A stretch of 64,000 nucleotides of DNA, taken from the NCBI GenBank assembly GCA_041653055.1, contig JBAZGD010000002.1, forward strand, positions 13,751 through 77,750, given 5' to 3'. Each line of letters opens with the position of its first letter. Position 1 is the first letter of the stretch. Source of the DNA: Candidatus Omnitrophota bacterium (GTDB taxonomy: Bacteria; Omnitrophota; Gorgyraeia; Gygaellales; Profunditerraquicolaceae). The notes below the pieces were generated by a model, which did not search any database, was not told where the DNA came from, and saw nothing but the letters and a program-made list of their open reading frames with translations. Both the position numbers and the translations under genes were made by a program. Positions 7,380-45,872 of the stretch are shown here, piece after piece.

Positions 7380-8375
7380 TCAGGGTTGATGCTGAGCAGG
7401 CGCCCTATCTTTAGAATAATTTTCCGGAGCCGTCGAAGCATCAAATAAACAGCTTATTGATTCTTCATTATGTATCCTCTTGATCGCCTCCGCCAGAAGG
7501 CTGGCTATAGTAAGAACCTTTATCCGCGGATGCTCTTTACTCTGAGATAAAGGGATGCTATCCGTAATAACCAGTTCTTTTAAGTGTTTGCAATTTTCCA
7601 AACGCTCAATAGCGTCACCCGATAAAACTCCGTGGGATATAGCGGCGTAAATATTCTTAGCCCCCGCCTTCTTTAACGCCTCTACCCCTTCAAAGAGAGA
7701 GCTGCCGGTAGCCACCAGATCATCTACCATAATCGCATTCTTGCCTTCAACGGTACCTAAAATATGCATCGCCTCAGTCTTCTCCGGAGACTCACGCCTC
7801 TTATCGATAATGGCTAAAGGGACACCTAACCTCTTGGCATAAGCACGGGCGGTTTTAATGCCGCCTACATCAGGAGAGACAGCCACCGAATTTTTTATAT
7901 CAAGGCCTTTAAAATAATCCGTAAATACCCCCACAGAGAAAAGATGATCTACCGGTATATCGAAGAAACCCTGGATCTGCCCTGCATGCAAGTCCATGGT
8001 TAATACCCTGTTAGCCCCGGCAACAGTCAAAAGGTTGGCCACCAATTTCGCGGTTATAGGCACACGGGGCTGATCTTTCCTGTCCTGGCGGGCATATCCA
8101 AAATAAGGGACCACTGCGGTAATGCGCGCGGAGGAAGCCCTCCTTAAGGCGTCCATCATAATCAAAAGCTCCATCAGGTTTTCGTTCGCCGGGGGGCAAG
8201 TAGGCTGGACTATAAATACATCTTTGCCGCGGACGTTATCATTAATCTTAACCCTTACCTCCCCTTCGCTGAACCTTGTAACCAGAGCATCAGAGAGCTT
8301 TGTCTTAAGGCATTTACAGATATCCTCTGCCAGACGCTGATGTGCATTGCCGCTGAATATCGCCAATTTATCCAT
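7380..8375 (-). CDS. prs: ribose-phosphate pyrophosphokinase (PRPP synthetase)
   Basis: …VVPYFGYARQDRK…, a DxHxxQxQGFF-like motif (DLHAGQIQGFFDIPVDHL) and the PRPP-binding loop DDLVATGSS. Confidence 0.9.
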   Translation of the reverse strand: MDKLAIFSGNAHQRLAEDICKCLKTKLSDALVTRFSEGEVRVKINDNVRGKDVFIVQPTCPPANENLMELLIMMDALRRASSARITAVVPYFGYARQDRKDQPRVPITAKLVANLLTVAGANRVLTMDLHAGQIQGFFDIPVDHLFSVGVFTDYFKGLDIKNSVAVSPDVGGIKTARAYAKRLGVPLAIIDKRRESPEKTEAMHILGTVEGKNAIMVDDLVATGSSLFEGVEALKKAGAKNIYAAISHGVLSGDAIERLENCKHLKELVITDSIPLSQSKEHPRIKVLTIASLLAEAIKRIHNEESISCLFDASTAPENYSKDRAPAQHQP

Positions 8376-11324: not shown

Positions 11325-12254
11325 TTAGCGAAGCAATTCTTGAGCGGACTTCTCTATATCTAGGCTTGTAAGATTATATTCTTTTAGAAGCTCTGAAGGA
11401 TCCCCTGATTGGCCGAATCTGTTCCTTATCCCCATGCGTATAACCTTAGTAGGATGGTTTCCGGAGACCACCTCATCAATACTTGAAGCAAGCCCTCCGA
11501 TTATAGTGTGCTCTTCACAAACTATGATGCCGCGGGTTTGAGAAGCAGCATTGATAATCGTTTCAGTATCAATAGGCCTTAAGGTGTGCAGGTTTATAAG
11601 ACGGACATTGATTCCTTTTTTGGCTAGATTTTCTACCGCCAGCATGGCCTGATTAACCATTATGCCGCAAGCAATAATTGTTAAATCATTGCCCTCGGTT
11701 AAAACCTGGGCCTTGCCAAATTCAAATACACTTTTGCTTGTTAATGTAGGGACCTTAGGCCTGCCAAGCCTGATATAAAAAGGACCCTTAACATTGGCGG
11801 CAACCCTTATAGCATCTGCGGTCTGCGGCCCATCGCAGGGAACAATAATATTCATATTAGGAATAACCCGCATAAGCGCAAGATCTTCCAGGGCCTGATG
11901 GCTTGCCCCGTCCGGGCCTACGCTTATTCCGGCGTGAGTAGCCACGATCTTCACGTTAAAATTATTATAACAGATGGAATTACGTACCTGATCCCACGCA
12001 CGACCGGAGGCGAATATGGCAAAGGTGGAAAGAAAAACAGTCTTGCCGCAGGAGGCAAGCCCCGCGGCAGCTGCCATCATATTCTGTTCGGCAACGCCGA
12101 AATTGAAAAACCTGCCGGGAAATTCCTTAGCGAATAGGTTAGTACGGGTAGAACTGGATAAATCGGCATCCAGGACTACAATATCCCTGTTATCCCTGCC
12201 CAACTCAACCAGGGCCTGCCCGTAAACATCCCTCTGAAATAATTGCTCTGCCAT
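11325..12254 (-). CDS. transketolase, C-terminal (pyrimidine-binding) subunit
   Basis: …FNFGVAEQNMMAAAAGLA…ATHAGISVGPDGASHQALEDLALMR… is typical of the split-transketolase B subunit. Confidence 0.85.
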   Translation of the reverse strand: MAEQLFQRDVYGQALVELGRDNRDIVVLDADLSSSTRTNLFAKEFPGRFFNFGVAEQNMMAAAAGLASCGKTVFLSTFAIFASGRAWDQVRNSICYNNFNVKIVATHAGISVGPDGASHQALEDLALMRVIPNMNIIVPCDGPQTADAIRVAANVKGPFYIRLGRPKVPTLTSKSVFEFGKAQVLTEGNDLTIIACGIMVNQAMLAVENLAKKGINVRLINLHTLRPIDTETIINAASQTRGIIVCEEHTIIGGLASSIDEVVSGNHPTKVIRMGIRNRFGQSGDPSELLKEYNLTSLDIEKSAQELLR

Positions 12255-45371: not shown

Positions 45372-45444
45372 AGCGGGAGACGGGGTTCGAACCCGCGACA
45401 TTAACCTTGGCAAGGTTACGCTCTACCAACTGAGCCACTCCCGC
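45372..45444 (-). tRNA. tRNA-Gly (anticodon GCC)
   Basis: Reverse complement GCGGGAG-TG-GCTC-AGTTGGTA-GAGC-G-TAACC-TTGCCAA-GGTTA-ATGTC-GCGGG-TTCGAAC-CCCGT-CTCCCGC-T. CCA not encoded. Confidence 0.85.
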
Positions 45445-45460
45445 ATGTTTTAAAATATTT

Positions 45461-45545
45461 TGGTGGGCGGAAGAGGATTTGAACCTCCAAGGGTTGCCCC
45501 AATAGCTCCTAAGGCTATCGCGTCTGCCAATTTCGCCATCCGCCC
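45461..45545 (-). tRNA. tRNA-Leu (anticodon UAG), long variable arm, CCA encoded
   Basis: Reverse complement GGGCGGA…ATAGC-CTTAGGA-GCTAT-(long variable arm)-GGAGG-TTCAAAT-CCTCT-TCCGCCC-A-CCA. Confidence 0.85.
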
Positions 45546-45588
45546 TATTTCCTCTTGCCGCTTAAAAAACTATAAGACTTAAAGATAA

Positions 45589-45787
45589 CCTGTGGTTTTG
45601 CGACGTGCATTAGAAATTTTTCGGCACTTCGATTACACTCAGTGCCGATGGTGAGTACAACCGAACCATCGACAAATGGGAGCAAGGAATTACGACGAGT
45701 GGAGACCGACGATTTATATGGTCGGTCGTAACGAGTCGTAAACCGTAGCTCCCGGCGAAAAATTTCAGCACGGAGCGAAACCGCAGG
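45589..45787. ncRNA. candidate structured RNA or miniature inverted-repeat element (about 200 nt, ORF-free) inside the tRNA-Lys/Leu/Gly cluster
   Basis: A terminal 13-bp helix (CCTGTGGTTTTGC / GCGAAACCGCAGG) continues through tandem G-A into CGTGC/GCACG, then an 8-bp AAATTTTT/AAAAATTT helix. Inside are hairpins CGGCACT…AGTGCCG and GATGGT…ACCATC, and a GGGAGC/GCTCCC helix enclosing nested TTACGAC…GTCGTAA and GACCGAC…GTCGGTC stems. No match found by eye to tmRNA, SRP, RNase P or 6S signatures. Confidence 0.3.
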
Positions 45788-45799
45788 TTATCAAATATA

Positions 45800-45872
45800 T
45801 GAGCCTCCCGAGACTCGAACTCGGCACACGCGGCTTAAAAAGCCGCTGCTCTACCGGATGAGCTAGAGGCCC
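45800..45872 (-). tRNA. tRNA-Lys (anticodon UUU)
   Basis: Reverse complement GGGCCTC-TA-GCTC-ATCCGGTA-GAGC-A-GCGGC-TTTTTAA-GCCGC-GTGTG-CCGAG-TTCGAGT-CTCGG-GAGGCTC-A. Confidence 0.85.

Follow-up and report, generated by a model that had tools for sequence, protein, structure and literature searches.

We identified a structured element of 209 nucleotides (nt) between the genes for tRNA-Lys(UUU) and tRNA-Leu(UAG) in a 64,000-nt stretch of a Candidatus Omnitrophota genome (assembly GCA_041653055.1, contig JBAZGD010000002.1, positions 13,751 to 77,750, referred to as a whole as the window). The element belongs to a family of about 33 homologous copies, 161-221 nt in size, which is previously uncatalogued and so far restricted to Omnitrophota, and its fold is real and upheld by compensatory changes. 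Our preferred interpretation, held with moderate confidence, is that of a co-transcribed, small interspersed, structured insertion module of ~160-220 nt acting, if at all, as RNA in cis. The dispersal of the copies, their internal-block variants and deletion derivatives, their nesting and their presence or absence in relatives together lead to this reading as a small interspersed structured repeat. Omnitrophota are uncultured bacteria, for which the family provides a concrete, well-supported structured element, and a full-text search combining the name of the phylum with 'noncoding RNA' turned up no paper on Omnitrophota noncoding RNA.

The gap between the two tRNA genes, put at roughly 250 nt in an earlier note made from the sequence alone, measures 254 nt by ARAGORN and Rfam and is as highly structured as had been claimed. 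On the minus strand RNA folding reaches a minimum free energy of -93.5 kcal/mol (z -7.7), and on the plus strand one of -108.5 kcal/mol (z -10.2), with 0 of 200 shuffles as good in either case; folding with DNA parameters agrees (z -8.3 and -10.3). The general layout of a long terminal helix opening into a branched junction holds as it was drawn in that note, although the closing helix (helix 1) comprises 18 base pairs (bp) and not 13, and the A/U-rich helix 3 comprises 11 bp and not 8 (Table 1). Two G-U pairs of the closing helix, as read on the plus strand, become C-A on the minus strand, and a 4x1 internal loop separates the 5-bp helix 2 from helix 3. The covariance model described below places the window copy at 45580-45798(-) with 162 bits (E 5.5e-38), and nhmmer places it at 45583-45796(-). 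As the note had it, the gap holds no plausible open reading frame (ORF): none is conserved, the longest open frames differing in frame and strand between copies. A small protein encoded by the element was ruled out on the same shifts of frame and strand.

Scanning public metagenome contigs with a pattern based on the element's conserved apical portion yielded 35 loci, 26 of which were upheld by nhmmer as true homologues. A covariance model built from 25 copies and calibrated then recovered 31 full copies and one diverged copy (L083 165-362); two further copies lie on a single ~20-kb contig (L169), and the copy in L033 is cut by the contig end. Folding energies across the family range from -64 to -110 kcal/mol. 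Homologues in the tRNA spacers of L002, L006, L018 and L027 share 77-88% identity with the window element, that of L033 has a truncated homologue, and the L089 copy is identical to the window element. No second copy was found within the 64-kb window by blastn, nhmmer or the covariance model, so that the search for extra copies proposed earlier as a test for a miniature inverted-repeat transposable element (MITE) came out negative inside the window.

Variation in size is largely modular. At the same locus of a near-identical organism (L104) the element is without 48 nt, corresponding exactly to the two-hairpin module at the junction (window 45625-45672). A related two-hairpin module occupies the same junction in L108 and in one of the L169 copies, which belong to another subfamily, and other copies have one small hairpin there; the 48-nt module was not found as an independent repeat outside the element. 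Two tandem element copies are present in L099, and short deletion derivatives lie right after tRNA-Lys in L020 and L013 (covariance model) and, similarly, in L009 (direct reading). Three unrelated terminal sequences of the closing helix define subfamilies (GATAACCTGTGG..., GCTTTTCCGTTTTCGC... and GCTCGGGATATTG...); by direct reading the element termini are TTGATAAC...GTTATCAA, AGCTTTTCC...GGAAAAGCT and GCTCGGG...CCCGAGC.

Covariation among these copies, a check that the earlier note had proposed for related genomes, supports the fold throughout. RNAalifold analysis of a 25-sequence alignment gave 57 pairs, 27 of which have changed on both sides. Pairing was retained in 97.0% of cells vs 84% in shuffles, with 0 of 500 shuffles reaching the observed value, and fell to ~40% when the partners were slid by 1-3 columns; the covariation score was 0.354 vs 0.129. 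Changes on both sides affect 12 of 15 pairs in the closing helix, which varies more than any other helix, 3 of 5 in helix 2 and 5 of 12 in helix 3 (99.7% of cells paired); helices 4-6 are 99-100% paired and also show compensatory changes. The columns of the bulge that reads UAAU on the sense strand are invariant or almost so. In helices 5 and 6 some of the apical conservation is imposed by the search pattern; the bulge, helix 3 and helix 4 lie outside the pattern, yet are kept in the diverged second L083 copy, in which the apical hairpin has been replaced.

About half of the copies (~13 loci) occupy the tRNA-Lys/tRNA-Leu spacer, and the element is found in at least 14 other intergenic contexts, which account for 13 of the metagenome copies. 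These include sites downstream of topA, ftsA and genes for an MFS transporter, a BNR-repeat protein, an MqsA-like antitoxin and ORF6N proteins, sites upstream of comF-like, cupin, PNP and ABC transporter genes, the proS|rimP and ORF87|queH junctions, and a site beside a PilZ gene. The neighbours of the copies outside the window are housekeeping or small accessory genes, and no gene or protein recurs beside the copies. Host operons include the essential proS-rimP-nusA-infB and ftsA operons. The idea of a novel small RNA embedded in a tRNA operon, one of two offered in the earlier note, therefore stands as to novelty, with no Rfam match at E<=10, but not as to setting.

Every copy with a callable flanking gene has that gene on the tRNA-sense strand of the element, the sole uninformative case being the second L083 copy, whose visible neighbour is divergent and whose other side is at a contig end. 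Given this co-orientation, the sense strand is transcribed whenever the host operons are. Genes in these contigs are nearly all co-oriented, so that orientation with respect to transcription and to replication cannot be separated.

Comparison of filled and empty sites identifies the copies as insertions into operon junctions that are otherwise compact. The contig carrying the proS|rimP copy (L169), of which we obtained 20.5 kb by way of the RimP protein of L096, has a spacer of 220 nt with the element, whereas proS and rimP overlap or abut in the syntenic L175 (the genome of L005) and L177. A second copy lies 7.6 kb away, between an 87-residue ORF and queH, where the ruvB-to-queH gap is 579 nt vs 47 nt in L177. 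Likewise, L083 carries two copies within 5.8 kb, and the site of its second copy, upstream of an ABC transporter gene, corresponds to 39 nt in the window. L001, the closest genome, with an frr 97% identical, is missing the element from its tRNA spacer and has a different element of 123 nt there. The empty sites on hand are diverged (51% RimP identity), too far for exact junctions to be defined from them. Its insertion sites include essential operons with closely spaced genes, among them a junction at which the two genes overlap in relatives. In 62 kb of the syntenic relatives (L175-L177 regions) there are no copies except for a 5'-arm remnant after ruvB. This piece, TTTGCTTCAGGGTTTTGTTCGCGTGCTGAAG, contains the 5' arm only and is joined to unrelated structured sequence (L175 16600-16680, L176 8897-8969); it is probably a rearranged remnant at the site of the full L169 copy.

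In the broad sense the family has the features of a small interspersed repeat: it is dispersed, with two copies each in L083 and L169 and with filled and empty sites, it is shorter than ~250 bp and non-coding, and its predicted transcript forms a long stable stem-loop. Known small interspersed repeats measure 100-200 bp, their transcripts fold into long stable stem-loops, Correia repeats exist in forms of 107 and 155 bp differing by an internal block of ~50 bp, and effects on the flanking mRNA depend on orientation, involving RNase E for ERIC, RNase III for Correia, or protection against 3' exonucleases (PMC2229807, PMC3049150). As with ERIC, Correia (NEMIS) and BOX, the units described here are non-coding, lie in transcribed intergenic regions, often inside operons, and occur at filled and empty sites; the presence of a block at a fixed internal site, giving forms of 161 and 209 nt, recalls Correia in particular. 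The element differs from all three in having no conserved terminal inverted repeats, TA ends or target-site duplication, in a closing helix that differs wholly between subfamilies while the core is conserved, in its low copy number, strict co-orientation with host genes and old compensated paralogues, and in coming from another phylum, with no sequence similarity. REP and BIME sequences are likewise intergenic hairpins at the 3' ends of cistrons that form mosaics with other modules, and the element has a palindrome and a hairpin module beside or inside its copies. REP hairpins are co-transcribed and stabilise upstream mRNA against 3' exonucleases. REPs are, however, simple hairpins of only 20-40 nt that number in the hundreds, lie in both orientations and depend for their mobility on RAYT transposases, whereas the element is five times longer, branched, of low copy number and found in one orientation only.

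On this interpretation the element would be co-transcribed with its host operon, and in the window the frr-tRNA transcript would read through it. Following the established pathway of tRNA maturation, RNase Z would be expected to cut after the discriminator of tRNA-Lys, because no CCA is encoded in the tRNA-Lys gene (which ends in GGCTCA, then TATATT), and RNase P to cut at the 5' end of tRNA-Leu, the two cuts together freeing a spacer RNA of ~250 nt that contains the 209-nt fold. Release by RNase P and RNase Z had been suggested in the earlier note, and the element does sit where processing of the flanking tRNAs would free it. The rod and three-way-junction core of the 209-nt fold should then resist exonucleases and leave a stable by-product RNA similar to RtT RNA of E. 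coli, an RNA of ~170 nt in a tRNA operon that is freed by processing of the neighbouring tRNAs (Bosl and Kersten 1991, as cited in PMC4986893). The element shares with RtT RNA the placement of a structured RNA inside a tRNA operon, but it also occurs away from tRNA genes and carries no copy of a tRNA 3' end itself. In mRNA contexts the long, near-continuous helices could form a barrier to 3' exonucleases, a site for RNase III, or both, so that cistrons on the two sides would be stabilised independently of each other, an effect demonstrated for REP, ERIC and Correia repeats. One speculation is that the strict orientation results from selection against the reverse insertion, in which the opposite strand would present its purine-rich, Shine-Dalgarno-like loops inside operons. 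If it acts in cis as an RNA module, the element illustrates a way in which very compact genomes gain processing or stability signals.

Several observations weigh against this interpretation. No consistent direct repeat or TA ends indicative of a target-site duplication were found in the flanks of 26 copies, conserved inverted termini were not seen, and no transposase is present among the ORFs of ~100 kb flanking dispersed copies. Copy number is low: the 64-kb window contains one, and stretches of 6-20 kb elsewhere contain one or two, unlike the hundreds of copies of REP or ERIC. Conservation is highest in the core arm, at the UAAU bulge and at the junction residues, and the core, its unpaired residues included, exceeds the termini in conservation. 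The two L169 copies differ by compensatory changes in helices 2, 3 and 4 and are old paralogues with no recent burst. Across 10 orthologous tRNA-spacer loci the mean pairwise identity of the element is 0.84, whereas the adjacent frr has a mean of 0.49 at third codon positions and of ~0.75 overall; the identity pattern of the element partly tracks that of frr (Spearman 0.32, p 0.03), and its conservation reflects either strong constraint or homogenisation or transfer between lineages. Taken together, the conserved core, the old compensated paralogues and conservation above frr suggest a functional structured RNA that has a specific partner more than they suggest a generic stabilising hairpin.

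The evidence as to strand also weighs in part on the opposing side. In 24 of 25 copies the antisense (window plus) strand gives the more stable fold, the mean difference being 10.5 kcal/mol, and the antisense loops are 78% purine (A 44%, G 34%, C 4%) and include the tandem G-A. Purine-rich loops are the usual composition in functional RNAs. The unpaired core of the sense strand is correspondingly 78% pyrimidine (U 44, C 34, A 18 and G 4%). The earlier note had observed that the only G-U pairs were read on the plus strand and had tentatively suggested this strand as the folded one; the observation is correct for the window copy but not for the family, in which G-U cells number 27 at 14 positions on the sense strand vs 14 at 9 positions on the antisense strand. 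At 1.9% and 1.0% of paired cells on the two strands wobble pairs are rare on both, which agrees with a DNA hairpin, or with a need for pairing on both strands, no less than with an RNA made from one strand. The strand evidence thus conflicts, co-orientation with host genes and G-U pairs favouring sense and folding energy and loop composition favouring antisense, and we leave the strand undecided.

A first alternative, a serious one although we consider it rather unlikely, is that the copies are paralogous members of a dedicated family of trans-acting noncoding RNAs, a new class read from the sense strand whose core (UAAU bulge, helix 3, junction and helices 4-5) binds a protein or target RNA. 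In the window such an RNA could be matured by tRNA processing like RtT, and its C/U-rich loops could pair with purine-rich Shine-Dalgarno regions. In functional RNAs it is a classic pattern for core and loops to be conserved while the closing stem covaries freely, and the variable expansion hairpins at one junction fit it too. Old within-genome paralogues with compensatory changes, conservation above the adjacent frr, low copy number and an orientation that puts the sense strand in host-gene transcripts are further points in its favour. A dedicated RNA is however difficult to reconcile with an element that is dispensable in close relatives, being absent here from L001, that tolerates deletion derivatives and that sits inside compact essential operons with neither promoter nor terminator of its own nor a recurring partner gene or protein. 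U/C-rich, G-poor loops are also unusual in structured RNAs. Orphan structured RNA motifs such as 6S RNA, Y RNA/YrlA and self-cleaving ribozymes share with the element a conserved core, a covarying closing stem, variable expansion hairpins and scattered contexts in fixed orientation; the element differs in having no Rfam match, no 6S-type bubble, no signal recognition particle (SRP) helix-8 motif and no tRNA-like module, and in being an insertion present in some genomes and absent from close relatives. A bolder proposal, which we put forward only tentatively, combines function with spread: a new structured-RNA class with a specific function in the core, as protein scaffold, ribozyme or anti-Shine-Dalgarno regulator, may be spreading as a self-contained module into transcribed Omnitrophota operon junctions. 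Were this so, conservation above frr and strict orientation would reflect selection on the RNA itself and not on a generic hairpin, and a specific partner of the conserved core would make the family a new RNA class.

An explanation purely at the level of DNA appears improbable to us. The element would then be either a transposon-derived MITE with a by-product hairpin or a single-stranded-DNA hairpin element oriented by the replication fork, its pairing kept by template switching within the palindrome without selection on RNA. In favour of such an element are the dispersal at filled and empty sites, the central deletion derivatives, which are expected of unstable DNA palindromes, the nearly exclusive Watson-Crick pairing on both strands, with few wobbles, and the many transversion-type flips (A-U to U-A, G-C to C-G). 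The z scores of the single-stranded DNA folds, the many copies near contig ends, and the strong strand skew of the window in genomes where gene and replication orientation are not separable can be added on the same side. Conservation is however the reverse of that in a MITE recognised by a transposase, with termini least and interior most conserved, conservation of unpaired residues is no lower than that of paired ones, target-site duplications, conserved TA ends and transposases are missing as described above, and attC boxes are absent by direct reading. A strict bacterial MITE of the Correia, ERIC or RUP kind was accordingly rejected on two features, the terminal inverted repeats forming the most variable part of the element and the flanks carrying no target-site duplication (often TA). 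The MITE-like insertion that was the other idea of the earlier note is therefore partly supported: dispersal, several copies per genome, filled and empty sites and internal insertion/deletion variants agree with it, and the termini, flanks and missing transposase partner do not. The insertion idea comes nearer the truth than a dedicated tRNA-operon RNA, and neither label fits fully.

Least probable is an antisense RNA transcribed from its own promoter on the window plus strand and directed against the host operon, for which the more stable folds (-108.5 vs -93.5 kcal/mol in the window), the A/G-rich loops with tandem G-A as in known structured RNAs, and -10-like AT-rich hexamers (TATAAG, TACAAT) that in several tRNA-spacer copies can be read directly 4-7 nt ahead of the antisense start can be adduced, but which has to contend with a promoter scan that found none, flanks needed for a promoter that are not conserved between contexts, an orientation antisense to the hosts in every informative context that is hard to explain for an independent gene, the head-on transcription that would result in tRNA and essential operons, and the larger number of G-U pairs on the sense strand.

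Searches for known families and element classes were negative for the element. Rfam (4227 models), applied at gathering score to the whole window, at E<=10 to the region, and to 26 related loci, matched only tRNAs, plus group I introns elsewhere; for 45500-45850 at E<=10, the cmscan check advised in the earlier note, the flanking tRNAs were the only matches. That note had seen no signature of transfer-messenger RNA (tmRNA), SRP RNA, RNase P RNA or 6S RNA, and indeed neither Rfam nor the ARAGORN tmRNA search matches the element. With respect to 6S RNA (RF00013) the element has only small internal loops and a junction with 1 nt on the 5' side, and no large central bubble. The covariance model of RtT RNA (RF00391) gives no match at E<=10 in the window or in other family members, and a single match to YrlA (E 0.84) falls on the tRNAs of L104 and not on the element. 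Integron attC sites were rejected since the RYYYAAC/GTTRRRY boxes are absent by direct reading and hosts include essential operons. Retron msr-msd, omega RNA of TnpB/IscB and IS110 bridge RNA were rejected, no reverse transcriptase, TnpB/IscB or IS110 recombinase gene adjoining the element, whose neighbours in the window are tRNAs, frr and a gene for phosphotransferase system (PTS) EIIA. Two viral pattern scans gave chance matches only, and no match was found in plasmids. Carriage of the tRNA-Lys 3' end with dispersed copies was also dropped: local alignments to their upstream flanks were no better than to shuffles, and a lone alignment above shuffles (L090) matches the 5' half of the tRNA and was taken as chance.

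In the window the minus strand reads rpsB-tsf-pyrH-frr-tRNA-Lys-[element]-tRNA-Leu-tRNA-Gly, followed by the PTS EIIA gene (Table 1). The nearest relatives of the frr product (<=97% identity) are in Candidatus Omnitrophota metagenome-assembled genomes. A promoter scan of the element region found no sigma-70-like promoter, and a single terminator-like site lies inside tRNA-Lys, the element having no terminator of its own; a U-tract after the closing helix is absent in every context. The plus strand of the whole window has 16404 C vs 11917 G and most genes around the element are on the minus strand; the skew is consistent with the minus strand being the leading strand.

Table 1 Features of the window copy and its flanking tRNA genes. 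Coordinates of the internal architecture are read on the plus strand
Feature	Position	Strand	Pairing or remark	Basis
tRNA-Gly(GCC)	45372-45444	minus		ARAGORN, Rfam
tRNA-Leu(UAG)	45461/45464-45545	minus	38 nt downstream of element	ARAGORN, Rfam
Whole structured element, 209 nt	45584-45792	minus (tRNA-sense strand)		Folds, covariance model, nhmmer
Closing helix (helix 1), 5' arm	45584-45601		Pairs with 45775-45792, 18 bp	
Tandem G-A	45602-03		Opposite 45773-74	
Helix 2	45604-08		Pairs with 45768-72, 5 bp	
Conserved 4-nt bulge	45609-12		AUUA on plus, UAAU on minus	
Helix 3, A/U-rich	45613-45623		Pairs with 45756-45766, 11 bp, 100% complementary	
Junction hairpins, two	45624-45645 and 45646-45671			
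Optional two-hairpin module at junction	45625-45672		48 nt	
Conserved core arm	45678-45753		Helix 4, GG/CC pair, helix 5, helix 6 and apical loop	
Helix 4, GGGAGC/GCTCCC	45678-83		Pairs with 45748-53, encloses two 7-bp stems	
Helix 5	45690-96		Pairs with 45735-41, 7 bp	
Helix 6	45704-10		Pairs with 45721-27, 7 bp	
Closing helix (helix 1), 3' arm	45775-45792		Pairs with 45584-45601	
tRNA-Lys(UUU)	45799/45800-45872/45873	minus	Directly upstream of element on sense strand	ARAGORN, Rfam

The order frr, tRNA-Lys, tRNA-Leu, tRNA-Gly is preserved in ~50 Omnitrophota species genomes, across which both tRNA spacers vary from 12 to 624 nt, many of them being strongly structured. The tRNA-Leu leader GCGGCAAGAGGAAATA is conserved with or without the element; the 5' leader as kept in many related loci, element present or absent, consists of GCGGYAAGAGGA and a few further bases (window 45546-45561) and holds a Shine-Dalgarno-like AAGAGGA. 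An all-against-all comparison of the spacers revealed several unrelated families of spacer elements, so that the tRNA-Lys/tRNA-Leu/tRNA-Gly spacers of the phylum constitute a hotspot of exchangeable structured modules. The element described here shows no similarity by blastn, nhmmer or covariance model to the group I intron present in some tRNA-Lys genes or to spacer families B, C and D, and kinship with these was rejected.

Spacer family B (~150-180 nt) is found in the tRNA-Lys/tRNA-Leu spacers of L002, L006, L030, L035, L040 and L054 (e.g. L054 3640-3822), with conserved blocks GACGAGAAC, GGGGTGCGGGG...CCCCGCG and GGGGTRACAGCGA. It terminates in a covarying T-arm stem (CGAG/CTCG, CGTG/CACG, CGCG/CGCG) followed by the acceptor 3' strand of tRNA-Lys (GGGAGGCTCA), which looks like a tRNA-like 3' domain; ARAGORN made no tmRNA call on family B and Rfam gave no match. 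Other spacer elements (L001, L004, L005, L010 and L031) end in a copy of the last 7-16 nt of tRNA-Lys (TCTCGGGAGGCTCA), as does the linker between the tandem copies in L099 (1700-1724). Such a spacer has the look of serial modules, each terminated by a tRNA 3' end, like the tyrT/RtT repeats of E. coli. The tyrT repeats carry copies of a tRNA 3' end.

The longest spacer, that between tRNA-Lys and tRNA-Leu in L040 (3674-4297), is 624 nt and folds at -263 kcal/mol, and spacer family C is common to the Leu-Gly spacer of L005, the Lys-Leu spacer of L028 and both spacers of L051; neither the L040 spacer nor the family C spacers have an Rfam match. At the position of tRNA-Lys(UUU), Rfam identifies group I introns in L009 (3731-3999) and L045 (2841-3095), with 93 and 75 bits, and ARAGORN misses tRNA-Lys(UUU) in both. 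The L009 exons flank the intron within the anticodon loop (GGGCCACTAGCTCA...CCACCCT / intron / TTTAAGGTGG...GGTGGCTCA).

Further repeats were observed beside or within copies of the element outside the window. An 18-bp perfect palindrome, CTGCCTGCCGGCAGGCAG, is present in seven Omnitrophota loci and not in the window (L029 652-669, L044 2973-2990, L048 2762-2779, L056 673-690, L083 6-23 and 2336-2353, L085 2505-2522 and L106 8312-8329); it is nested within the element copies of L085 and L106 and looks like a REP-like dispersed palindrome. A hairpin module, CGTCATCCTGAACGAGCCGCAGGCGAGTGAAGGATC, adjoins element copies in either orientation (L105 ~11905-11945, L106 ~8200-8245), with a partial second copy upstream in L106 and an inverted one downstream of the element in L085. 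Intergenic regions in the genomes of L085, L105 and L106 thus appear to be mosaics of repeat modules.

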